DNA of 55,926 bases, filler included, from Basidiobolus ranarum (lineage: Eukaryota): NCBI GenBank assembly GCA_040143965.1. It is 5 parts of 5 records of this genome, joined end to end, with 100 filler letters (N's around TTAATTAATTAA, not from the genome) between each part and the next. Parts side by side here need not be neighbours in the genome. Positions count along the whole stretch, not along the records: positions 33,656 to 44,747 come from JASJQH010000638.1; 4 more parts are not named here. The stretch is one strand, 5' to 3'. A model generated the notes under the pieces. The model was not told where the DNA came from and did no database searches. It saw only the letters and a program-made list of their open reading frames with translations. Both the position numbers and the translations under genes were made by a program. This document shows, piece after piece, positions 11,133 to 45,510 of the stretch. Within the stretch, counting starts at the first letter, position 1, and every line of letters starts with the position of its first letter.

Positions 11133-11232
11133 NNNNNNNNNNNNNNNNNNNNNNNNNNNNNNNNNNNNNNNNNNNNTTAATTAATTAANNNNNNNNNNNN
11201 NNNNNNNNNNNNNNNNNNNNNNNNNNNNNNNN
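11133..11232. other. Artificial contig linker (N-run + TTAATTAATTAA + N-run)
   Basis: 100-nt spacer with a six-frame stop linker; the identical structure recurs four times. Confidence 0.98.
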
Positions 11233-12813: not shown

Positions 12814-13215
12814 TCTTTCTAAAATTTTTGTTAAAGGGTATCTGGCGTGGCAATGGTCATTATATTATAGGAATTAAAGAGTTTAGTCAATATGACAGTT
12901 TTTTTCGAGCCGGCGAAATATTTAGTTTAATTTCTAAATGAAGTATAAAGTATCATGTTCATAATTACAAATTGTGATGAATAGAAATATACATGAGAGC
13001 ATAGTGAAGCTACCCGACATATATGGAAAGTATACGGATACAATTACGGATAAAAATACGGCTAAATTTGGTCTATACCAGGCGACTTGTTAAGGAAACA
13101 AAAGATCACTCATAAACGTACATTTTCACGCCCTTTCCCGTCCTTTTTATTATCATTTAAGTTAGCGTGAAACAAATAATCAATATCTATAAAGACGACC
13201 ACCACGGTGAAACCT

Positions 13216-13954
<739 letters not shown>

Positions 13955-14914
13955 GATAAAGATTTGATGAGAGTAAGAGATAGAGATGAGGATAAAGTGG
14001 ACCTTCTTAAGCTGTTGGCGATAACGCAACGGTATTTATAGGATTCCTTGACGTTGAAGCCAGATTCTTTTTCCACTCTCCTTTTCAGCTAGTGGCGTAA
14101 CATAATTGGACAGCTGCGTAGGATCTGAGCTGAGGTGGTATTGAATTTCATAAGATTTAGATCAGGCAAGGTGACTATTTTGGAATCTGAGATAACAAGG
14201 CGCTGCCTTTAAGATGGATTTCCTAAGCAGAGTCGCTATTTCCCACCTCACGATGTGTAACAACTCCAGCGTAGATATGGATAACAAAGCAAATGTTTCA
14301 AACAATGAGGATGAAAATCAAGTTTACCTACCATCATTTGGACTTATCCTAGCTCTATCCTGCATACTGCCGCTTAAGGTGAAACATGAGCTGATAACTT
14401 AAATCATGAGCGAAGACGTATTTCAAACACGATATCTTCACTCAGGAGGTGGTGGTCACTCAATTTACTTTGATAGGAAATAAAAGCTGAAACCGAGTGA
14501 ACAAAGCCCTCATCATTTGTCTCATCAGGTCACGGGGTAGCATTTCAAATTACTCACGCATGTCACATCGAAGAAAGAGCTGCATTCCGGAACGTCATTC
14601 TGGGACAGTTTGGTTGAGAACCAAGGTACTGAATCCCAAATATATTCAAGAAATATACGTCCATATCCATAATATGATATCGATGAAAATGAATAATACA
14701 ACTGCAACATCAGCATATTTATTCAAGTGACAAAGCGTATTTCCAGATGAAAATCGATAATAAGAGATAAAACTTTAATATCAGATTTATACATGAGCAG
14801 GATATTTATTCATGAGGGTTTTCTGATCTCTCAACAAATATAGGAAAAGGCGAAGGTTTTTGTCAGATATACAATACCAATCTAATTTTATGTTGCAAAA
14901 CCCATGCTTAAGAT

Positions 14915-15451
14915 TTATGAGGAGGTGGCTGAAGCACTATTACCATTACTCTTGGCAGATCCCGACCCATAGAAGCGATCTTTGATATTCTTGGCAGTAT
15001 TTTGAATAGGAGTTACGACATTCTGATTAAGACTTTCCAACACTTCGTTGGTAGGCGCCTTTACAATTGGGAATTTCGCTTCAATATAGTCTAGAGAGCG
15101 ACAGCCCAATTCATCGACCTTGGAGATGGGTTGTTGGAAGTGAGCTTGATAAGGTTCTGAGAGTTTGTAAAGACTATTGGCTGCATTTTCTACAGTTGAA
15201 GCCACTTTTTTTATATATCCGGCATTGGTATCGTGAACATAAGAAGACACTAATTCCACACCATCATGAACTAAGGGAATCGAAAAGATACGCTTAATAA
15301 AGCCTAGCTCACCCGACTTGTGTGCACCGTTAGCACCATTGGTACCTTTTTCGTTCTCATCCTGGTTATTCACAGTCTCATTTTTTTCCGAAGGATGTCC
15401 GTTATCCTGATCTTGGTTCTTTACTTCGTTCGAGTCTTGAGAGGCCGGCAT
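14915..15451 (-). CDS. Perilipin/PAT-domain-like lipid droplet protein
   Basis: RIFSIPLV..PISKVDELGCRSLDYIEAKFPIVKAPTNEV resembles the PAT domain of perilipin/CAP20-type proteins; TATA-like element upstream. Confidence 0.7.
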   Translation of the reverse strand: MPASQDSNEVKNQDQDNGHPSEKNETVNNQDENEKGTNGANGAHKSGELGFIKRIFSIPLVHDGVELVSSYVHDTNAGYIKKVASTVENAANSLYKLSEPYQAHFQQPISKVDELGCRSLDYIEAKFPIVKAPTNEVLESLNQNVVTPIQNTAKNIKDRFYGSGSAKSNGNSASATSS

Positions 15452-17201
15452 GATGACTAAATTCGCTCCGGAGAGTGATGAGAAATGCAAGTGTTTAAGC
15501 AGTCTGACAACTTTTGGCAAGCTCTTTATAGATTCAGAAAGTATATACTAGGGCCCAGTGAGACATAGATAAGTTAGTTAAGCCACACATTCATTGTTTT
15601 TGAACTTTTAATGTACATTATTTATTCATTGTTTTGAGCATGACGCTGATTAGTTTGTGATAGCATTGAAACCAGTGTTACTATATATCCTCAGCTCAGC
15701 TTATGGCTTATATCTGTTCATTGCCTTATTTGCTACCTCTCATTGTGAAGTGGATTGATGAGTTGATCGGTATGGGGTGGTTAGACGTGGTTGTTTGCTA
15801 AGCCACCTTTGTTGATATTCAGATGTATCTATTCTAAACCAGATTACTAGATAACTTGGAGCATGGGGTGATGACTGGGGCGAATCCGGGTTCATATCTG
15901 ATCATCGTTGCCATAGTTGCTATTGATTAGCATGATCACTCTTTGTCCTTGTTGGCATGTTGGAATATGTGTTGGTACCATGATTTAAATACGTATGTAT
16001 ATATGCTATTGTACCATGGTTTGTAGATGTATGCATATATATGCTGTTGTTGATTCAGATCGTTCTATCATTCAACTTTGCATAACTTCAGGACAAACTT
16101 ACCATTTCTCTTTCCCTCGCTTTCCCTCACTTTCCCTCACTTTCCTCCTCCTGACAATGGTTTTATGACACATGGGTGACTGACTTATACTTTCCAATTA
16201 CGAATGATTTATTGTGGCTGAATACCTAAATTGTGTGATTCTAAGGAATTTTGCGTACCAAATCATCCCATGACTGACAAACACCAATTTTGCTTTCCTA
16301 TACTGACCAGTTTCAACAAGTTCTTTACCAATTGGAATCTTCAAAAAGGAGCAGAAGCCTTACACTTGCACCGTTGATTGATGCCGTTTGCTAAGCCACT
16401 ACATCCCATATATATATTGACATATCCACATATAACTTTCTTGACTTTGCCATTATGAAGTAGTAAGAGTATTGCAAAGTGAATCTAGAAGTAAACTTAA
16501 GTTATTGGCTATAGTTCTATTACCCCCACTGTCAGAGTATAAGCTGGAATCTTATCATAGCTCTTAATACTACTCTTCTAATTTCCCTTGAGGAGTTTAG
16601 TTGACTTTAAGCAGAAAACTTGAGGACTAAATATACCCTGACTTCGGTGCTGATCCTTGCAGTCCCAGAAAGAAGCATGCACCTTGCTTGAAGATGACCT
16701 TTTTTGTTTCTTATTAATCCACTTCGTTAAACATCTTGTACTTTAACTATTTCCCGGAAATATTCTAATAGTCTGCTTGACTTAGTGCAGGGAATGTTTA
16801 ACCAGGGCTCAAGTTTCACACTATATATTAAAAATATTATATACATATATGCTTCAAAAATATTGAATCAACAAGTGAGAGCGGGAGCGGGTTTATTGAG
16901 CGCATGCTTGAATTATTATTAGAATATTAGTGTACTGAAGAACTATTTATGGGAAGATATGTCGCACAAGTCTTAATGATACCTGATTGCAATTCTATTG
17001 AGTTTCTATCTTTCCTATATAAACAACAATATTTTTGCTGCCTCGCTCGTTGGTTGCCTGTCATCCGCCTGTTGTATATTTCACCCTCATCTTTACTTCC
17101 ATTCTAATCATAGAAATCTTGAAAATTTAACCGGAATCTTTAAAACTTTGTAACTATATTTATTCCCACTTAACGCTCTAGAACGATATTACACAGAAAG
17201 A

Positions 17202-18748: not shown

Positions 18749-21700
18749 CTACTTCGATACCAAGTTTAATAGATGGTCAAGGGAATATACTTCTGCAGGT
18801 TTCTGTTGTGCTTCTTGAGGTTTGGCCTCAACCTTTTGACTAGGAGATGGTGGATTAGATTTGTGTGCAGGGCTTTTGTCAAGGCTGGCGGGTCTGTCTT
18901 TACCAACAGCCTTTCCTTCAGTGCCCTTTCTATGTGGTTCATGGTAGTGTGCTGAATGACGATCCGATCTATGGTCAGTGCGCTGAGTTTTGACCTTTCG
19001 CGAATCTAGGCGTGGGGAGGAGGGTGCGGATCTTTTTCTTGATCCTTCATTATTAGTATGTACATTAGTGAGCAGACTTCCATATTCTAGCTCATAGTTG
19101 GGTTTTTCTATTAATAAAGGGGTTCCTTCGAAATATTCTGGATAATCAAATATAGAAGGATATTTCTCTTTCGATTTTTTGTTCACTGATTTGTATGATC
19201 TTCTCATCCCTTTCTCCTCGATTGCTGCATTTCTCCGTTCTGGATAAATGCTCCTATGATCTTTGTTTCGTGTATTTACCGACTCTTTAGACTGTACATC
19301 GCTCTCCTTGGGTTGCTTTCCACTAGATTCCGGTCGCTTTATCGTATGTTTGTCAATGTTATCTGATCGAGAGTCTTTGAACTTATTTTCGTATCGTTGA
19401 TGCTGGTTGCTTTTTAGTTGTGACTCGATCCTTGGCTTCTTTTCTGGAGTGTAACTCTTTCTGGGTTGGTGTTCTACCCCAGAAGGACTTGAATGGCCTG
19501 CCCTATATTGATCAGAGACATCTTTTCGAGAATCCTTGGATTTTTTTTCATCTAGATGTGCTACTGAATCTTTCAACTTCTTACTCTTCTCCAGTTCCGT
19601 TTCCATTTCGACTCTTGGCCTCTTAACTTGAGTATGACTGTCCTTTGCTGATGATTCTGGTCGCTTGGTCTTATATTGGGTAGTGATGTCATTTTGGGGG
19701 TCCTTCGATTTGTCTTGTTGATTAGATGCTGAATATTTCGGCCTTTCATTGATGTCTAACTCTGGTAGCTCGATAATTTGCTGAGGATGGTTCGTTCCGG
19801 ATGAAGTTTCTACTGTTACAGGCATATCAGTACTTGGCCTTTGAGGGTGCTTTACTCTATTTTCGTATTTATGCTTATCAGTGGTGTCTCTAGCGCCCAT
19901 CTCGAGTGGAGATTTATCAGTGATACCTGTTCGAGAATCCTTGCTTCTATTTTCGTCATCTATCTTCAAGTCGATTTTCCTTAACACTGGCTTTTTGAGA
20001 ATTCGTTGGCCTGCTATCTCTTCGAGAATCCCTTGACTTGCTATCGCGTCGATGTTCTTCAATACCACCTCTTCGAGAATCCTTTGGCCTGTTGTCACCT
20101 TGGTATTCATTGACATCACCCCTTGGAAAATCACTTGGCTTGCTATCTTGTCGATGCTCAACAGCAATATCTCTTTGAGAATCCTTTGACTTATAACTGC
20201 GCGGATATTCATCAATACTACTTTTTTGAGCATCCTTTGACTTGTTCTCTTGTCGATACGGAGCGGCATTATCTCTTTGTAAGTCTTTTGATCTAGGATC
20301 GCGTGGATATTTATCAATACTACTTCTTCGAGAATCTCTTGACCTACTTTCCTGTCGGTGCTTAACAGTGCTATTTGCTTCATGATCCTTTGTTCTGTTG
20401 TCGCGTTGGTATCCATTAATACTGCCCCTTCGGGGATCCCTTGATCTGCTTTCCTGCCAATGCTCAACCGTATCACTTTGATAATTCTTTGATCTATTAT
20501 CGTGTTGTTGTTCACCAATACTACCTTTTTGAGAATCCCTCGACCTGCTTTCCTGTCGGTATTTAACAGTGCTATCTGTTTGGTGCTTCTTTACTATATT
20601 GTCGCGTTGGTACTCATTGGCATTACCACGTTGAGAATCCTTTGACTTACTACCGCGTCGATATTCATCAATGCTATCTCCTCGAGAATCTTTTGACCCA
20701 TTGTCGTGTTGCTGTTCACCAATACTACCTCTTCGAGAATCTCTCGACCTGCTCTCCTGCCGGTGCTTAACATTGCTATCTGTTCGATGATCTTTTGTTC
20801 TGTTATCGCGTTGGTACTCATTGACACTACCACTTTGAGAATCCTTTGACTTATTACCGCGTCGGTATTCATCAATGCTACCCCTTCGAGAATCTTTTGA
20901 CCCATTGTCGCGTTGCTGTTCACCAATACTACCTCTTCGAGAATCCCTCGACTTGCTTTCCTGTCGGTGCTTAACAGTGCTATCTGTTCGATAATCCTTT
21001 GTTCGGATGTCGCGTCGGAATTCATTAACACTACTTCGGGAATCTCTTGATCTGCTATCCTGTCGATGGTCAACAGTACTATCTCTCTCCGAATTCGTTG
21101 ATTTATTGTAGCGTCGATTTTCATCAATATTACTTCGAGAATCTTTTACTGTGTTTCGGAAATCATGTTCGTCAGTGTTGCCTTTTTGAATGACTTCTAC
21201 TCTGTTTACATGATGAAATTTATCATTATTGTTTCTTGAGAAATCTCTCAACTGGTTTTCGCGCTGATACTCTTTGTTGCTGCCTGTCCGAAAATCATTT
21301 TCTCTGTTTTCATCGATATACTTGTTGGCGCTACCTATCTTAGGATTCTTTGGCTTGTTTTCGCGTCGATATTCTATATTGTAATCTCTATGAAAATTTT
21401 CGGATCTGTTCTTGTGCCGAGGTTTATCAGATATATTTCTTTGAACATCAATTGATCTATTTTTACTTCGATTTTCATCAGTAGTGCGTATTCGCGAATC
21501 CTTTGATTTACTTCTTTGCTCATCCTTAGCTTTGTTTTCGTATCTTTGCGCACCAGGGTTGTCTTGAGAATGGTTTGCTCCATATTCATATGCGTAGTTA
21601 TTCACATTGTTTCTTATCGAGTCCTCCAACTTAGTTTCGCGTCGGTCCTTACTTTTCTCCAACTTCGATTGCGACTCCAGCTTGATTTGTGGCTTATTGT

Positions 21701-22349: not shown

Positions 22350-22449
22350 NNNNNNNNNNNNNNNNNNNNNNNNNNNNNNNNNNNNNNNNNNNNTTAATTA
22401 ATTAANNNNNNNNNNNNNNNNNNNNNNNNNNNNNNNNNNNNNNNNNNNN
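22350..22449. other. Artificial contig linker
   Basis: N-run + TTAATTAATTAA + N-run. Confidence 0.98.
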
Positions 22450-33555: not shown

Positions 33556-33655
33556 NNNNNNNNNNNNNNNNNNNNNNNNNNNNNNNNNNNNNNNNNNNNT
33601 TAATTAATTAANNNNNNNNNNNNNNNNNNNNNNNNNNNNNNNNNNNNNNNNNNNN
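33556..33655. other. Artificial contig linker
   Basis: N-run + TTAATTAATTAA + N-run. Confidence 0.98.
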
Positions 33656-34230
33656 AATTCCGATCTTGGTTTGAAATTTTTTAAAAATAATTCCGAACTT
33701 AATTTAAATCTTAATTCGGATCTTGGTTTGAAACTTTTAAAAAAATAATTTCGCAAAATATTATTTTAAAACTCAAATTAGAACTTGAAGAAGATCTTGT
33801 TTAGAATTTAATTCCGAACTTAATTTAAATCTAATTCGGATCTTGTTTAGAATTTAATTCCGAACTTAATTTAAATCTAATTCCTATCTTGGTTTGAAAT
33901 TTTTTAAAAATAATTTTGCAAAAAATTATTTTAAAACTTGAATTAGAACTTGAAGAAGATCTTGTTTAGAATTTAATTCCGAACTTAATTTAAATCTAAT
34001 TTGTATCTCGGTTTGAAAAATTTTAAAAATAATTTCGCAAAATATTATTTTAAAACTCGAAAAAGATCTTATTTAGAATTTAATTTGAATCTTAGTCCAA
34101 GAACTCTTTTAAAATATTATTTCGTACTAACTTTAATTTAAATCTTAACTCGAACTTGAATTATATCTTGGATTTAAAAATTATTTCGCAAAAATTTAAT
34201 TTAAACCAAACCTGGATTTTGGTTCGAAAC
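33656..34230. repeat. AT-rich complex tandem repeat with palindromic subunits
   Basis: AATTCCGAACTTAATTTAAATCT at ~33689, 33810, 33856 and 33975; TTTTAAAAATAATT..ATTATTTTAAAA hairpin units at ~33737, 33902 and 34021. Confidence 0.92.
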
Positions 34231-34232
34231 TT

Positions 34233-36230
34233 TTAAAAAATATATTTATGGTTGAGTCTGAGTAAAGATTGTTGAACCAATGGGTGATTGTACGGAACGA
34301 TATTTATCTTATCTATTGTGAATGGTTGTTCTTGGTTTTCTCTCGTGAAAATATATTTGTTGGAATAAGATTTTGGCTGGGATAATTTTTTTGGTTCCCA
34401 GGAATGTGTTTCGTCAAGAAATATTTTGTTTAGGGTAGATGTATTTGCGGAAAGTAGTTGTGTTTCTTTGCATTTAAGCCAAGAGACGTTTGGTTTTGAA
34501 AATTCGTAGATTGTGTGAGCATTTAGGAGTTTGACTTCTGTATCTGGTGCGAAAAAAGATATATCTAGGGGTCTTTGGTACCTGCAAACAAACCCGTAAT
34601 TTTCTAAAGTTTGTTGGATCTGGGGAAAATTTTTTGTGATGCCAATAATTTTGCAGATTGGGTGTAAGAGAGGTTGGAGTTGGGAAAAGTGTTCTGGGAC
34701 GTGATCTAGTTGGAATAGGGTAATAATGTTGTACTTAATGTTAACGTCGTGCAAATTTGGTAAATGTAAAATATTTACCGTTGGAAAGTTTGGTGTGTAC
34801 ATCATAATATTTTGGATTTCGTTGATCCACAATTTAAAGAACGTCTGTGGTGTTCCATCTAAAAGGTCTGGACCCAAGGCGTCTTGGATATTTTTTTCGA
34901 CAATAGTTAAGTTGTTGCCGTAAATTCTGTCTTCGCGTTTTTTGGTGCACACTAGGGTATGTCGTTCAAGTATGTTAAACTCGTAGATACCTGTGACGTC
35001 AAGGATATTATTTGGGTCTAGTACATTAGTAATCCCGGATGCCGTTGGGTCAAACTCTTGGGGTGGGTTACCACAGGATAATTTTTTGGTGAGTGGATTC
35101 CATTCCAGATCGACGGTGGTGCCGATATGTTTCCATTTGTAGATTTTGTTGTGGTATTGTTTGCCATGGGTAAATACGATTCCGTCCATCATGTTTTCGT
35201 ACTTTTTAAACATAGATAGGGTTGGGAAGACGTTCATGGGTAAATAGGGTTTAGATTCGAAAAGGTTCTGTTGTGTTAGGTAGGGTTTGATGTCGGAGAG
35301 AAAAGTTTTTATGTAAGAGAGTCGTTCGGGTAATTTATGTCTAGTTAGATTTTTTCCGTTGTAGATAATTACATCTAAGATAAAATATTTATCGTGGTTA
35401 ATTTTTTCTATGTCCAGGGCAATTGGGTTGCGTTTAGAGTGTTCGGTAAAGTGTAGTATAACGTTGCATAGACAATCTCGATCTAAGTTTGGTTTTAGGG
35501 TGCACAAATATCCTCCCATAATTGTCAACAGAAGTCTTTCTCCGTCTACTTTTGCGGACATCATGTAATTCTTTTTGGATAGCACTAAATCTTTGATATT
35601 GCTTTTTGTAAGGGTTACGGGTTTGTTTAGTTTAAATTTTTTAATTACGGTGTTAGATTGTTTAGCGAGAATATTTCTGATAGTTTTTGGGATAAAGGTT
35701 TTGTCGTTTAGCATACATAGTGTGCAGAATTGGGCAGTTTTGAAAAATTTTTGTATATTAAGCTTGTCAAAAGATAATATTTCAAGTTCAACGAATCGTA
35801 GGATGTTATTATTTTCTGGGATTTCTGTGATATCTATTCTAAAGTCGTCAAATGTTTTTGACCATCGTTGTTTTTGGATAGGTTTGATAGAGAAGGAGTT
35901 AAGTTTAACATTGTAAGAGACGCTAACTTCTGAGCTCAGCACTAAGTTATACCAGTCACCCAAAAGTTTTTTGCGTTTTAGGGTAGACTTGCAGACGGTT
36001 TCTTTGCCATTTATTTTTCTGTAATAGTATTCGCCGCTTATTCTGGTTGGCCTAATTTGTTTTTCCATATATGTAATATGTTCCCAATCATCGGGACCTA
36101 GGGTGGATTTAATTTTGTTGATGCCAGATTCGGTAATTATACTTCCGTCCATGCGTAGTTCTAATTCGGCACATTTTCCGAGTGATTTTCCGAATATTAG
36201 CATAGAATTTAATACAGATTTGTCATCCAT
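34233..36230 (-). CDS. Viral-type mRNA capping enzyme: TTM RNA triphosphatase + guanylyltransferase + degenerate C-terminal methyltransferase-like region
   Basis: TTM motifs ELELR, KQRWS..FRIDITE and FVELEI. GTase motifs KPVTL, I KVDGER, III LDIE, IIIa YFILD, IV DGIVF, V YKWK..TVD and VI REDR..GN. 665 aa, intronless. Confidence 0.9.
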   Translation of the reverse strand: MDDKSVLNSMLIFGKSLGKCAELELRMDGSIITESGINKIKSTLGPDDWEHITYMEKQIRPTRISGEYYYRKINGKETVCKSTLKRKKLLGDWYNLVLSSEVSVSYNVKLNSFSIKPIQKQRWSKTFDDFRIDITEIPENNNILRFVELEILSFDKLNIQKFFKTAQFCTLCMLNDKTFIPKTIRNILAKQSNTVIKKFKLNKPVTLTKSNIKDLVLSKKNYMMSAKVDGERLLLTIMGGYLCTLKPNLDRDCLCNVILHFTEHSKRNPIALDIEKINHDKYFILDVIIYNGKNLTRHKLPERLSYIKTFLSDIKPYLTQQNLFESKPYLPMNVFPTLSMFKKYENMMDGIVFTHGKQYHNKIYKWKHIGTTVDLEWNPLTKKLSCGNPPQEFDPTASGITNVLDPNNILDVTGIYEFNILERHTLVCTKKREDRIYGNNLTIVEKNIQDALGPDLLDGTPQTFFKLWINEIQNIMMYTPNFPTVNILHLPNLHDVNIKYNIITLFQLDHVPEHFSQLQPLLHPICKIIGITKNFPQIQQTLENYGFVCRYQRPLDISFFAPDTEVKLLNAHTIYEFSKPNVSWLKCKETQLLSANTSTLNKIFLDETHSWEPKKLSQPKSYSNKYIFTRENQEQPFTIDKINIVPYNHPLVQQSLLRLNHKYIF

Positions 36231-36258
36231 GATTTAATTAATAATAGTTTTTTGCGAT

Positions 36259-36730
36259 AAGTTTGGGTTTAAAAAAGTTTGTTTGGCGAAAAGTTTGTCT
36301 GGAACGAAAAAGTTTGGTTGGTGAGAAGTTTGTCTGGAACGAAAAAGTTTCGAAAAGTTTATTTCAAACTAAAAGTTTGTTCAACGAAAAGTTTGTTTGG
36401 CGAAAAGTTTGTTCAACGAAAAGTTTATCTAAAACTAAAAGTTTGCTTGACGAAAAATATTTTATCTAGAACTAAAAGTTTGTTCAACGAAAAGTTTATT
36501 TCGAACTAAAAGTTTACTTGACGAAAAATATTTTATCTAGAACTAAAAGTTTGTTCAACGAAAAGTTTATTTCAAACTAAAAGTTTACTTGACGAAAAAT
36601 ATTTTATCTAGAACTAAAAGTTTGCTTGACGAAAAATATTTTATCTAAAACTAAAAGTTTGTTCAACGAAAAGTTTATTTCGAACTAAAAGTTTGCTTAA
36701 CGAAAAATAATTTATCCAGAATTAAAAGTA
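36259..36730. repeat. AAAAGTTT-core tandem repeat array (16/18/16/21-bp subunits, 71-bp higher-order unit)
   Basis: About 22 AAGTTT cores; AAAAGTTTGTTCAACG at 36474 and 36545 (71-bp period). Confidence 0.93.
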
Positions 36731-36844
36731 ATTTTTTGATATCAAAAGTATAGAAACGGAAAACCTATTTCTTGGTTTTGTATCAATTAACATTGAAAAA
36801 ATATTTGCATTCCCCATTCCGCCTTACACAAAATATACGTAGCC

Positions 36845-37126
36845 ATGAGTCTTAAGTGTAAATCTACTGTCCATTTGAATGGGTATCCACAAATTGGTAC
36901 AGAGGATTTTCAAATAAAAATCGCAAATAAATTGGAGTTCAGAAACTTTTATAATTCAGAAGGTTTATACCCTCATCAAGAATTCTTGCGTAGATATCTT
37001 TCTCCACATACTCCGTATAAAGGGTTGTTGTTATTTCATTCCCTGGGTTCAGGTAAATCACTAGGTTGCATATCTGTCGCAGTGGACCATCACGTCTACA
37101 AGTTGAAATTAATCACTCCTCCTTGA
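36845..37126 (+). pseudogene. 5' fragment of NCLDV D6/D11-like (VETF-S/NPH-I family) SF2 helicase
   Basis: YP..DFQIKIANKLEF, LYPHQEFLRRYLSPHTPYKGLLLFHSLGSGKS (Q motif and Walker A). The ORF stops about 20 codons after motif I, with no DExH. Confidence 0.8.
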
Positions 37127-38778
37127 GTATATATCATTCTTCGCTCGTAACTGAATGTAAGATTCCGCCAATAAGATACTTGTTGAAAATCACGTTGTAA
37201 CTAGGGAATATATAATATACCAATGCGGTATTTGGGTAGAGGTGCATGGTAATTATGGATTTTTAATGAGAAAGGAACGAGTTTGTTAAATAAATAAGGA
37301 TCATCTGGTGGTGGTACAATTAAATGTATTTAGGTAAACAAGTCTCAGCCCACTAAACTTGCCATATATCGCTTAGGATATTATTAAGTTCATCTATTCA
37401 AGTAAGAATGGGTTAATAACATGCTCAAGATAAGGTGTTATCTGTTGATGCACTTACTCGAAATTGAGTAACCATCCATTTCTTGCACCTGATTCCAGCG
37501 ATTCATTCTTCAAAGACGGGTTACCATGCCTGTAGTACATAACATGCTCGAAATACTTCATGGGAACGGTAGAGCAGCAGTATACCTGATTGCGTGTCAG
37601 GCCACCGCCTTTTTTGGTTACAACTTTTCACACTTCCCTGCTTCCAAATACAGCTATTTTGTAAAGCATTCACTTTTTTCATTACTACATTCAACCCAGG
37701 CACTACAATAGTTTAGGTGAAAGTTGATGTTCCACTGTAGAATAAAATATCCCAGTTATTGCATCATCCCTTGACGTTGATAAGCTAAATTCACCTAAGA
37801 CAACCTCTTGTAGCTACCGCATGAGAATTACTACCCATTGAAAGGAAATACGATGCAGCGGGGACTAAAAGATGAGAAGAGACACGTCCAGAAGGATTTT
37901 CTGACCAAGATACTATTGATATGACGATCTAATGCTAGAAAAGCCAGTGGTTGAATATTACATTTAATGCTTGAAAAAATCGTTACCAACCGAATACCGT
38001 AGCATTCTTACCAATCTCATTGAGAAAGATCAAAATAAAAGTAAGAGCCATTTTAGTAGCCACTGCACTCCATTATTATTTTGGTAGCAATGTTAGGAAG
38101 TACCCAATCCAATAAAATTGACATGATATATGTCCAGAATATGCATGTCACCTATTATGAATACACGTGATATGAGGGAGGTCATAACCTAAGAGCTACA
38201 TGCTGTCAATTATTAAGCTGTCAATTATTCCACCAACATTCGATACAAATATACACTATGAATTCGATTTCGCCATCAAATAGCTTAGTTAACTCTATTT
38301 AACCCCAACTACTGTTATATTTGTATCAACATCTAGTTAGTGACTTTTGTAAAGTAGTGCCATTGGTGTAAAATTGAATTTGGCTTATTTGCGTTATAGC
38401 TGGTACAAACTCAGTAAAAAGAAACTCATTCTAGGTGAAACAGTTACTTGTCTGACAAACTTTAGAATTTGTGAATTTTAACTCACAAGAGCAACAAATT
38501 CTCAACACCGGCTAATTCCAAATTTTTGTAGTTCCTTATGTTACATGTATTCGACGACATGTACAAATACTACCCAATAATCAGAGACCAAGAGCTCGAA
38601 CAGCTTACCATGGCAAGAGTACTATTTCATCATCGTGGCAATAGAATGTGAAAAAGGAGCATAGTAGCACATAATTTTAAGTATAAGTACTTCTCAGCGG
38701 TAACATCTTCATTATCTAATCATCTTTCAATAGTTCTTGAACCTTTCAGATATTTATCAACCTTGCAGTGAAAACAAT

Positions 38779-40392
38779 ATGCGCACTAATAACGCCAAGG
38801 AACAAAGTACTTTTAAAGAAGAATGCCAAGCTGTTTACAAATGGTGGTCTTCTGAACGTTTCAGCCATGTCACTCGCCCGTATTCAGCAGAATCCATTGT
38901 GAAAAAACGCGGAACCCTCCAAGTTCAATACCCCTCCGATACAATGGCTAAAAAACTGTGGGGTCTTCTGAGCAACCATTTCAACAATGGTACAACCTCT
39001 CATACCTTTGGCTCTTTAGATCCGGTTCAAGTCATTCAGATGTCCAAGTACTTGGAAACTATTTATGTATCCGGCTGGCAAAGCTCTTCTACAGCCTCTA
39101 CCTCCAATGAGCCTGGCCCTGATCTTGCTGATTATCCCATGGATACTGTTCCTAACAAAGTTGAACAACTATTCCTCGCTCAGCAATTCCATGATCGCGT
39201 GCAGAATGAAGCAAATATGAGTGTCAACTGTGAGGCTTCCTTGAAAATCAACGATTATTTCCGCCCAATCATCGCCGATGCTGATACTGGTCACGGAGGA
39301 GTAACTGCAGTTATGAAACTCTCTAAGATGTTTGTTGAACGAGGTGCGGCTGGAATTCACCTTGAAGATCAAGCTCCAGGTACCAAAAAATGTGGCCATA
39401 TGGCTGGAAAGGTTCTAGTTCCAATAAGTGAACATATCAGAAGACTTATTGCAGCCAGAGCTCAGTTCGACATCATGGGAGTAGAAAATCTACTTGTTGC
39501 CAGAACTGACGCTGAAGCAGCAACTTTGATTACTAGTACCATTGACAAGCGTGATCATCCGTTTATACTCGGCACCAGCAACGAATCTCTTCGTCCATTA
39601 GTCGAAGTATTGGAGGAAGCTATAGAGGCTGGTACAGATCTCGCAGAGTTATCAAAACTCGAGGCTCAATGGATTAGTGATGCCAACCTTCGTACATATC
39701 CAGAAACTGTAGTAAACGCCATTGAAACCTCAAATTTGTCGAACAAAGAAGATTTGATCAAGAGTTGGAATGAAAAAATTGATACCATCAGTATTTCGGA
39801 AGCCAAAAAACTAGCCAACTCCATGGGGGTTACAGTTGAATTTGACTGGGATAAACCACGTACTACCGAAGGGTATTATCGTTATCAGGGAGGTATTGAA
39901 TGCTGTGTTGCTCGCGCCAGTGCTTATGCCCCATATGCTGACTTGTTATGGATGGAGAGTAAAAGCCCTATTATGGAGGAGGCAAAAAGATTTGCCGAAG
40001 GACTTCATGCGAAGTATCCTTGGGCCAAACTTGCTTATAATTTATCACCTTCCTTCAACTGGGATGCCACTGGTATGAGTGACGAGGAAATGGGTAACTT
40101 CATCCGGGATCTAGGCAGCTTGGGTTACTGTTGGCAATTTATTACACTTGCAGGATTCCACTGCAACTCTTTGAGTATCGACTTATTTGCTCGGGATTTT
40201 GCTAAACGAGGTATGCTGGCTTATGTTGAGGGAATTCAACGTAGGGAGAGGGAATTTGCAGTAGAAACGCTTCAACACCAGAAGTGGTCTGGTGCTTATT
40301 ACTATGACGAGATAGTCAATATGGTGAGTGGTGGTGTTGCGTCTACTGCAGCGATGGGTTCTGGAGCTACTGAGGAGCAATTCCAACATTAA
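38779..40392 (+). CDS. ICL1: Isocitrate lyase
   Basis: [20 protein letters not shown], catalytic KKCGHM and [20 protein letters not shown] carries ICL-type rather than methylisocitrate-lyase-type residues. Confidence 0.95.
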
Positions 40393-41172: not shown

Positions 41173-42289
41173 TTATTGAGTCTGTAGTTTTAGAGACAAC
41201 ATTGATGGCCAAATATCCATCCACTGAGAAACTTTCTCGTAAACCATAAACGTAATTGCTTGTCCAGGAGCGACCCGGAGAAGACGTGGTGTAAGACCTT
41301 TATACAAGGCCCGATAGCCCTACAGAAAAATAAAGTATTTCTTTTTAGTCTTTCATTCCTATAAATTCAGTCAGTTGAGAAGAAAAATACCTCATTTCTA
41401 ATGATACTAGCGGTTGTATTGGTGAACTGAGCCCAACCAGATTCATTGCTTACCATGGAAGCTTTCTGAACTCTAGTTTTAATTGTATCAATGGGCGCAT
41501 TACACATGGGTCCCATGGCACCACTAATACCACCAAGTGCTAGTGCTTGATAGCTAGGGAGCTCCGAGATATCTTGATAAGCCAATAAATGTTTTTTTCC
41601 CTCTTGATAAGCAGTGAAATTTACTCCTTGATTTGTCGCTTGACGTAAGCAAGTGAGGGTTACTCCTTTGTACAGTGCTCCAATTCCCTCTTCTCTAATA
41701 ATTGTATAAAAAGTCTGTGATCCAGTACGATATTTAGGTATCTCATTAAGGTTGAATTTCGAGCGATGCTGTGTCTGTAGACGAATCTTCACAACATCCG
41801 TGGGACAGACCACCATGATAGACTCAGTGACACCTGCTGCTAGACCAGCTGTAAATTGAGAGTTATGAAGGTTAAACTCAGTAAGGATCAAAGTACAATC
41901 AATTTAACTCTTCAAGTATCCTTACCTACGAATACGGAAGTAGTGGAAACATTCCCGGTCTCTTTGTTAGCTAGCAAAGATTTGTATAGCTCAAAGCTAG
42001 AGAAACGTATACTCATCTTCGGCACAATTCCCATAACGACAACACCTAACCCCCTATAGAGCGCCAATAGACCCTCATCTTTAACGATACGAACACCTGT
42101 ACCGAAGAAAGATCTTGGTCGCACCTCAGCAGAAGAGTTGGTTCGAAGCTGCATGAAAACCTTGACAGTATCTAAAGGATGACATATGCAAGCTTCTACA
42201 AATCCTGCACTTCCACCAGCAATCAGGTGAGTAGAAAAATTCTTCTTGCGGGAGCGATCTGATGACATATTAATGGAGCTTTTTGACAT
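41173..42289 (-). CDS. SFC1: Mitochondrial succinate-fumarate carrier (3 exons)
   Basis: Three carrier repeats, with GIVPKMSIRF, LRQATNQGVNFTAY, NAPIDTIKTR and PRLLRVAPGQAITF diagnostic of Sfc1/Acr1/AcuL. Confidence 0.9.
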
Positions 42290-44747: not shown

Positions 44748-44847
44748 NNNNNNNNNNNNNNNNNNNNNNNNNNNNNNNNNNNNNNNNNNNNTTAATTAAT
44801 TAANNNNNNNNNNNNNNNNNNNNNNNNNNNNNNNNNNNNNNNNNNNN
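44748..44847. other. Artificial contig linker
   Basis: N-run + TTAATTAATTAA + N-run. Confidence 0.98.
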
Positions 44848-45510
44848 CCTATACCACCATATAAGCCAAACCCACTCCCAGCCTAAAAGCCTAATCCCGT
44901 CCCTCCTTACAATCCAAATACTTTCCCACCTTACAAGCCACAGCCTGTCCCCGCTTACAAGCCAAAGCCTGTCCCTGCTTATAAGCCAAAGCCTGTCCCT
45001 GCCTATAAGCCAAAGCCCGTCCCTGCTTACAAGCCAAAGACTGTCCCCGCTTACAAGCCAAAGACTGTCCCCGCTTACAAGCCAAAGACTGTCCCTGCCT
45101 ATAAGCCAAAGCCCGTCCCTGCTTACAAGCCAAAGCCCGTCCCTGCTTACAAGCCAAAGCCTGTCCCTACTTACAAGCCAAAGCCTGTCCCTGCCTATAA
45201 GCCAAAGCCCGGCTATGGTTCGGGATCTAGTGGTATGAGTGGATATTCTAGCAGCAGTAGAGGGGGTTCTGGCTACGGCTCGAGCTCTAGTAGCCGCAGA
45301 TCCAGCTCCAGCAGAATAATACGTGAAAAATCGTCAAGCTCCTCAAGTTCATCAAAAGGTGATACATCTTCCTATTCTTCCATGAAAGATGGAGAAAACG
45401 GAATCAATTGGAACGAAATATCAGGTGGATCCGAGGGTATTAGAAAGGCAATCAACAATAACTTGGATTCAGGTTCAGATGATGATGATGACGATAATGG
45501 CTCTTATTAG
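44848..45510 (+). CDS. 3' part of a Pro/Lys/Tyr-rich (YKPKPVPA)n repeat protein with Ser-rich tail; in-frame TAA at 44884-44886
   Basis: The 24-bp tandem repeat at 44848-45210 reads YKPKPVPA in the same frame as ORF 45235-45510. Confidence 0.65.

Follow-up and report, generated by a model that had tools for sequence, protein, structure and literature searches.

A probable fundsalphavirus-type element fragment beside the isocitrate lyase gene of Basidiobolus ranarum

The locus analyzed here raises the question of how a pair of genes of viral type came to adjoin the isocitrate lyase gene (ICL1) of the fungus Basidiobolus ranarum, and of the kind of element to which this pair belongs. The pair lies at positions 33656-37108 of a stretch of 55,926 nucleotides from assembly GCA_040143965.1 (hereafter, the whole stretch is referred to as the window). 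We conclude that this segment is probably a fragment of a fundsalphavirus-type element, most likely endogenous in the nuclear genome of B. ranarum beside ICL1. Its domain content and gene arrangement place it in a single family of elements, of which the window holds a truncated copy: an intact gene for an mRNA capping enzyme, the start of a divergent helicase gene and two tandem arrays.

The capping enzyme and helicase genes

The capping enzyme (triphosphatase-guanylyltransferase) gene was found at 34233-36230, on the minus strand, as a stop-free open reading frame (ORF) of 665 codons. It is intronless, as is the helicase gene opposite, unlike the neighboring carrier gene. Residues 1-175 (35706-36230, minus strand) form a TTM (RNA triphosphatase) domain, recognized from an alignment, a structural model and Foldseek searches. 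They are followed by the nucleotidyltransferase and OB domains of a guanylyltransferase (GTase; residues 200-455, 34866-35633, minus strand), with KVDGER, DIE, DGIVF, KWK and RxDR motifs; the Pfam family mRNA_cap_enzyme matched residues 203-327 (E = 3.6e-7). In an alignment of 13 capping enzymes, TTM residues E22, E24, R26, K81, R122, E148 and E150 were invariant, as were GTase residues K227, D229, G230 and R232, D273/E275, D349-G350, K365-W-K367 and R432/D434. The acidic and basic residues of the TTM tunnel are, therefore, all present in the window enzyme, together with motifs I, III, IV, V and VI of the GTase; judging from its sequence, this enzyme could still carry out the triphosphatase and guanylyltransferase steps, if expressed. 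The remainder of the protein (residues 456-665; 34236-34865, minus strand) aligned as a shrunken cap N7-methyltransferase remnant and a C-terminal extension common to two relatives, P0046 and P0047. Ten of the 13 aligned enzymes keep the S-adenosylmethionine (SAM)-binding motif (consensus ILDIGTGQGGD, with variants). The three without it are the window protein, P0046 and P0047, so that the Basidiobolus capping lineage has lost the cap methyltransferase motif.

The AlphaFold2 model of the capping enzyme had a mean pLDDT of 72.6, with a well-predicted N-terminal beta-barrel and GTase and a poorly predicted C-terminus; in blocks of 10 residues, values were mostly 71-93 for the TTM barrel, and fell below 50 at residues 477-515 and 582-634. 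The best Foldseek match of this model, over nearly its full length, was the vaccinia virus capping enzyme subunit D1 (4cke_D, E = 7.2e-20). The model also matched the GTases of PBCV-1 and humans and, in its TTM part, Sulfolobus TTM (7nsf, 7.2e-7), Trypanosoma cruzi Cet1 (6l7x, 1.0e-6) and Schizosaccharomyces pombe Pct1 (4pn1, 1.1e-6). A profile of the family capping enzymes matched the human (3s24, 4.9e-18) and PBCV-1 (1ckm, 3.8e-15) enzymes in its GTase part, and RNMT-type methyltransferases. A search of PDB with the single capping sequence returned chance matches only (all E >1), and a PHROGs search returned nothing. An exhaustive HMMER search identified 64 relatives of the window capping protein, including one from the chytrid Clydaea vesicula.

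A second copy of the capping enzyme was recovered as two sequences identical where they overlap, P0002, from a 1171-bp contig of the same assembly, and P0045. This copy displays 83-84% identity to the window protein over residues 1-381 and 348-665, with 90-92% positives, and covers all 665 residues without a gap or stop codon, which indicates that the two copies diverged under purifying selection. The deposited gene model K7432_009864 (517 aa), which matches the ORF at 100% identity, departs from it after residue 484. As the second copy is conserved to the last residue of the 665-aa ORF, the deposited model is mis-spliced. The capping gene has a host-like GC content at third codon positions (GC3, 0.384), which is uninformative either way concerning the age of the insertion.

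The helicase gene begins in the opposite direction, at 36845 (plus strand). Homology to D6/D11-type (VETF-small-subunit-like) superfamily II (SF2) helicases extends to 37108, corresponding to the first ~88 codons, through Walker A. The ORF itself (36845-37126, plus strand; 93 aa) contains HQEF...GSGKS, enters unrelated sequence past 37108 and stops at 37126. It has 42 longer homologs (320-1308 aa, most of 830-956 aa), some of which come from assemblies of Linnemannia elongata and Mortierella sp., and its identity to the family helicases over the aligned stretch is 59-88% in 41 of the 42 matches. The best of these homologs, P0003 (88% identity, E = 5.6e-40), is full-length and encoded on a separate 3016-bp contig. 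A distant homolog, P0044 (1308 aa), bears Hom_end/LAGLIDADG intein domains. The helicase family profile matched vaccinia VETFS (2.7e-27) and NPH-I (9.4e-19), the closest proteins among solved structures, and cellular SNF2 to a much lesser extent (6e-4). The rest of the helicase is absent from the whole window. With only ~88 codons left, the helicase of this copy is dead and unable to work. As the helicase homology ends at 37108 and no further helicase or other family gene is present in the window, the segment is a relic, rather than a whole element. An earlier note on this DNA, drawn from the sequence alone, had described an intronless fusion of a TTM triphosphatase to a KxDG guanylyltransferase and the start of a divergent D6/D11-type helicase gene, and both descriptions are borne out.

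The element family

The window proteins lack close named relatives, but they share membership of a single element family. Loci of this family were retrieved with the helicase profile (4 from IMG/VR and 15 metagenomic), and 16 of them hold both genes. In 14 of these 16 loci, the genes for the capping enzyme and the helicase neighbor each other and point in opposite directions, matching the arrangement in the window, the exceptions being L001, with two ORFs between them, and L014, in which they lie on the same strand. The nearest relatives of the window proteins are also paired: P0046 and P0004 are both from 19807-bp contigs, and P0047 and P0005 are both from 8806-bp contigs. An adjacent capping enzyme and helicase (P0007/P0125) were also seen on a 21,561-bp contig in a metagenome-assembled genome (MAG) of Phenylobacterium sp., probably due to a binning error.

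The family DNA polymerase (PolB) matched PF00136 at ~1e-81 (5.4e-83) and is Pol-delta-like (yeast Pol delta 3iay, 1.7e-72); of its 113 PDB matches, the best 60 included no protein-primed polymerase of the phi29 or adenovirus type. The loci also carry Rpb2, Rpb5 and an Rpb1 split into N (~640 aa) and C (~350 aa) genes, together with a D5_N primase-helicase, XPG/FEN1, a uracil-DNA glycosylase (UDG), a second SF2 helicase and DUF5757. Six loci (L008, L009, L010, L011, L015 and L017) contain one to three HET-domain (PF06985) genes each (e.g. L008:5118-6758). The HET domain is a typical component of heterokaryon incompatibility in fungi, which hints at fungal hosts for the metagenomic elements. Family members were found in soil metagenomes, in IMG/VR and in assemblies of Mortierellaceae, a chytrid and Basidiobolus, those of the first two being labeled Linnemannia elongata, Mortierella sp. 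GBA30 and Clydaea vesicula. Locus L015 additionally encodes a Hint-module (PF01079) protein (13928-15166). Besides the capping enzyme and helicase, no PolB, D5, split RPB1, RPB2, RPB5 or other family gene was found in the window, as would be expected of a fragment that is truncated on one side and, on the other, reaches the end of the contig 577 bp past the capping gene.

None of the 40 ORF products from the family loci matched the capsid, A32 or VLTF3 Pfam families, but this is weak evidence, as only ~10 kb on either side of the helicase was covered. Searching L002 for PF04451 yielded no match, and the control likewise gave no signal. This 17,169-bp IMG/VR contig is classed as bearing 145-nt inverted terminal repeats (1-145 and 17025-17169), but we do not take these as a sign of a complete linear genome, because bases 38-94 of the terminal sequence recur internally at 12919-12975 and L003 carries near-identical genes on a 35-kb contig. 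The intergenic regions of L002 share dispersed repeat units in both orientations.

Phylogenetic analysis of the helicase was performed on 45 rows, of which 16 came from the family loci and 19 from the 42 database matches, the remaining 10 being giant-virus-MAG-type or other distant sequences. The 35 family rows were split from the other 10 with strong support (SH-aLRT of 98), and P0003, P0004 and P0005 formed a clade (support of 100) inside the family, at an unresolved fork. The tree for the capping enzyme comprised 35 rows, 30 of which formed the family (support of 100); two rows intended as outgroups fell inside it. In this tree, the window protein clustered with P0046 and P0047 (support of 99), and this clade was sister to the other 27 (support of 93), with long branches. 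In the ESM Atlas, the neighbors of both proteins were NCLDV (nucleocytoplasmic large DNA virus) clusters, which we consider only as leads.

Repeat arrays, spacer and genomic surroundings

Tandem array A (33656-34232; AT 79%, GC 0.211) lies downstream of the capping gene and reaches the end of the contig. It is composed of ~119/165-nt units of 23/46-nt subunits, and the corresponding Tandem Repeats Finder (TRF) rows span 33688-34105, with 82-93% matches. Tandem array B (36231-36744) fills the spacer between the divergent genes with 16-18-nt AAAAGTTT-type subunits arranged in 37/71-nt units (TRF rows 36238-36729, periods 37/71); one 28-mer occurs five times, versus none expected. Searches for inverted repeats and hairpins in the arrays yielded only low-complexity AT-rich matches, and the array B unit had no match in IMG/VR. 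The capping-helicase spacer measures 614 bp in the window. Among the 14 relatives with an adjacent divergent pair, it is 33-72 bp long in 11, and 164 and 258 bp long in two others; the helicase start of L008 is ambiguous. Intergenic tandem repeats are present in 10 of the 16 family loci, covering 0-20.5% of each locus.

The 5' flank of the helicase gene (36745-36844, plus strand) contains only one ATTGA (CATTGAAAAAA), which is located at 36792-36796, 53 nt from the ATG, and its conservation with P0003 reaches back to 36803. AATTGA (also in the extended forms AAATTGAA and ATAATTGA) was counted in the 100 nt upstream of 130 genes of the family loci and was found in 24 of the 130, versus 2.7 expected, corresponding to a ~9-fold enrichment. 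This motif resembles the mimivirus early promoter motif. No motif of this type was found within 120 nt upstream of the window capping gene, and the 614-bp spacer contained no match to ATNTGA, the upstream element of pGKL-type plasmids, on either strand.

The window consists of five contigs (11132, 11117, 11106, 11092 and 11079 bp), sorted by size and artificially joined by four identical linkers of the form N44-TTAATTAATTAA-N44 (11133-11232, 22350-22449, 33556-33655 and 44748-44847), and adjacency across the linker points therefore carries no meaning. The segment opens the fourth contig (33656-44747), and position 33656, the first base of this 11,092-bp contig, is thus a contig end inside array A and not a DNA junction. 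There are no Ns between 37108 and 44747, and the viral-type part (AT 68% overall, 64% in its genes) is continuous in the contig with host genes. A non-coding flank (37109-38736; GC 0.359), within which no similarity to family proteins was detected, is taken as host DNA upstream of the isocitrate lyase (ICL) gene. The host ICL gene follows at 38779-40392 (plus strand; PF00463, 4.8e-247) and, at 41367-42289 (minus strand), a host mitochondrial carrier (SFC1-like) gene in two ORF pieces (PF00153, 4.9e-32 and 1.5e-23).

The earlier note had reported a gap-free run into host DNA with ICL1 and SFC1, which these results confirm, and two repeat arrays unlike anything else in the window. No copies of arrays A and B were indeed found elsewhere in the window, the comparison being with four unrelated contigs only. 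Its description of the segment as one end of an integrated genome could not be upheld: the left limit is a contig end and the right limit a break at helicase codon ~88, with no element terminus. Two further tandem arrays, on unrelated contigs, have a 24-nt unit in 14.5 copies, inside an ORF with a repeated peptide (44863-45211), and a 102/204-nt unit (20014-21084).

Nature and origin of the fragment

Gong, Zhang and Han (2020, Virus Evol) described the fundsalphaviruses, endogenous NCLDV-like elements, in 14 fungi from six phyla (PMC7017919). These elements encode PolB, D5, a D6/D11 SNF2 helicase, a SAM methyltransferase, RPB2, RPB5 and an RPB1 in N and C parts, and their hosts include Basidiobolus meristosporus, B. 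heterosporus and Mortierella elongata (PMC7017919). In two Basidiobolus species, elements of this type lie within long genomic contigs and contain stop codons (PMC7017919). The relatives of the window proteins share the gene set and the host genus, the SAM methyltransferase corresponds to a domain of the capping enzyme in the relatives found here, and both the published elements and the window segment are joined to host DNA. We infer from this agreement that the family identified here, consisting of compact NCLDV-related dsDNA elements from terrestrial and some zoosporic fungi, is that of the published fundsalphaviruses. There are also differences: B. ranarum is not among the 14 species, the published screen was based on PolB only and did not describe the triphosphatase-guanylyltransferase (PMC7017919), and the window copy has no methyltransferase motif and possesses large tandem arrays. 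The term "fundsalphavirus" was found in PMC7017919 only in our literature search. We therefore regard the B. ranarum fragment as likely to be a truncated member of a kind of element already described, and not a representative of an undescribed lineage, as the earlier note had considered possible, or a pGKL-type plasmid.

The fold and domain order of vaccinia D1 match those of the window capping enzyme, and the helicase family is close to VETFS (D6) and NPH-I (D11), but sequence identity to D1 is only ~12%, the window protein appears to have no functional methyltransferase domain, and no D12-like or VETF-large-subunit partner was identified for the window element. The Mycodnaviridae, giant viruses of zoosporic fungi with genomes of several hundred kilobases, are, from the available text of Myers et al. 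(2026, PMC13533422), also NCLDVs of early-diverging fungi, and their genes likewise include those for a capping enzyme, a superfamily II helicase and a D5 helicase-primase. They differ in bearing a major capsid protein (MCP), whereas none was seen in the sampled stretches of the window's family. In the same portion of that study, no NCLDV MCP was reported in 40 non-zoosporic fungal genomes, and only Dimargaris had one among 2,543 Mycocosm genomes (PMC13533422).

Several other origins were weighed against this assignment. Ordinary cellular fungal genes, encoding a Ceg1-type capping enzyme and an SNF2 remodeler, can be dismissed for practical purposes, given the scores of the helicase profile for VETFS and NPH-I versus SNF2 and the D1 fold match. 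It is true that the GTase part of the family profile scored best against human and mouse capping enzymes (4.9e-18). Nevertheless, the fusion of TTM and GTase, in some cases with a methyltransferase (TTM-GTase(-MTase)), with a likeness to D1 over the full length of the fold, the synteny of both genes, in 16 loci, with genes for the replication and transcription of viruses, and the absence of introns from both, unlike the adjoining carrier gene, are inconsistent with a cellular origin. The proposal in the earlier note of a viral, NCLDV-type source rather than Ceg1/SNF2 thus holds, and the PolB, D5 and RNA polymerase of the relatives point in the same direction. A cytoplasmic virus-like element (VLE) of the pGKL2 type, integrated or free, with ORF3/YKP3 as the capping enzyme and ORF4/YKP4 as the helicase, is an improbable source, despite several resemblances. 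The pGKL2 ORF3 protein is not known to have a methyltransferase, and the closest clade (the window protein, P0046 and P0047) likewise lacks the methyltransferase motif. Triphosphatase and guanylyltransferase activities are documented for ORF3 and, in both systems, a capping enzyme and a D6/D11-type helicase would serve an element-encoded RNA polymerase (in the accessible part of PMC6211774). VLEs with YKP3 and YKP4 are recorded from Coemansia, Cunninghamella, Umbelopsis and Podila in the consulted sections of Heneghan et al. (2026, PMC13348850), and their occurrence in Zoopagomycota and Mortierellomycotina is described there. Both kinds of element occur in Zoopagomycota and Mucoromycota. Furthermore, in trees containing no VLE reference rows, the Basidiobolus clade falls outside the group formed by the 27 other capping enzymes of the family. 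However, the spacer has no ATNTGA, as the earlier note had already argued, the intergenic spaces are long and filled with repeats, and the AT content (64% in genes, 68% in the fragment) is lower than the >75% given for VLEs in the part of PMC4431711 available. The relatives encode a Pol-delta-like PolB, D5, FEN1, UDG and separate Rpb1, Rpb2 and Rpb5, whereas in VLEs the PolB is protein-primed and the RNA polymerase is a beta-beta' fusion; this gene content was seen in the sampled loci of the family inside which the Basidiobolus-type clade sits in the helicase tree, the contigs of P0004/P0046 lying outside the sample. Finally, the screen of Heneghan et al. covered all non-Dikarya assemblies, and Basidiobolus is mentioned nowhere in its text (PMC13348850).

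A further explanation accepts the viral-type part as real but holds it to be episomal or co-sequenced DNA misassembled onto the ICL1 locus. We consider this unlikely, although it accounts for a number of features. The capping ORF is intact, with all the catalytic residues of the triphosphatase and GTase kept, the arrays are well preserved (82-93% matches), the contig ends within an array, and the second capping copy and the full-length helicase 88% identical to the fragment lie on separate contigs of 1171 bp, from the same assembly, and 3016 bp. In addition, VLE-like contigs with capping enzyme and helicase genes in other fungi are described as high-copy episomes without host junctions in the part of PMC13348850 consulted. 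However, a chimeric join would have to fall exactly at helicase codon ~88, and no shared repeat is visible at the break near 37108, where the helicase frame passes directly into the unrelated, non-coding sequence that precedes ICL1. Given also that two species of the genus provide a precedent for such elements, with stop codons, within long contigs of the genome, we moderately favor integration into the host genome over an assembly chimera of an episome.

Several points weigh against an endogenous fundsalphavirus-type fragment and temper its acceptance. Integration is inferred from contig continuity alone, in one ~11-kb contig of a fragmented assembly, and the left end of the fragment is an assembly break. 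The undecayed state of the capping ORF and of both arrays would also fit a living episome misjoined to host DNA. The equation with fundsalphaviruses is based on gene content and host overlap. Both trees were built by a "quick" method and contain no pGKL2/VLE ORF3/ORF4 or named NCLDV reference rows; a tblastn search of PLSDB aimed at such VLE and NCLDV reference sequences gave no match. The branch of the window protein in the capping tree is long (1.58), and the 93-aa helicase piece was too short for inclusion in the helicase tree, in which P0003 served as its proxy.

If the fragment does derive from a fundsalphavirus-type element, the capping enzyme and helicase would have been a conserved, divergently transcribed pair in the parent element. 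By analogy with vaccinia VETF and with pGKL2 ORF4, proposed by Sykora et al. (2018; in the accessible part of PMC6211774) to bind a short upstream promoter element, the helicase, a VETF-small-subunit-like ATPase, may bind element promoters and recruit the multisubunit RNA polymerase of the element. The capping enzyme may travel with this polymerase, as envisaged for the vaccinia and pGKL2 ORF4/ORF3 systems, its TTM domain removing the gamma-phosphate from nascent transcripts and its KxDG domain transferring GMP to them. In the window copy, the spacer between the two genes has been inflated to 614 bp by the tandem array.

A bolder and rather improbable interpretation is that the Basidiobolus lineage is not a fossil but a living, capsid-less, repeat-rich element lineage, intermediate between the fundsalphaviruses, which are NCLDV-like, and cytoplasmic VLEs of the yeast type. 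It would be marked by the methyltransferase-less capping enzyme and the divergent capping enzyme-helicase pair, with two copies kept under purifying selection, and its capsid-less nature is suggested by the lack of a capsid gene in the sampled family stretches, in agreement with the findings for terrestrial fungi in the available text of PMC13533422. On this view, the intact capping gene next to ICL1 would either belong to an active element or have been retained by the host.

Considered as a fundsalphavirus-type relic, the window itself is a modest result, a truncated copy that adds B. ranarum to the fungi with NCLDV-related DNA. The family extends the picture beyond the PolB screen of 2020, as its elements pair a full TTM-GTase(-MTase) capping enzyme with a VETF-like helicase and are common in soil metagenomes, with fungal-type HET genes and an AATTGA-type upstream motif. 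This family could help to settle whether these elements are viruses, plasmid-like in nature or both, and how they are related to the helpers of yeast killer plasmids.

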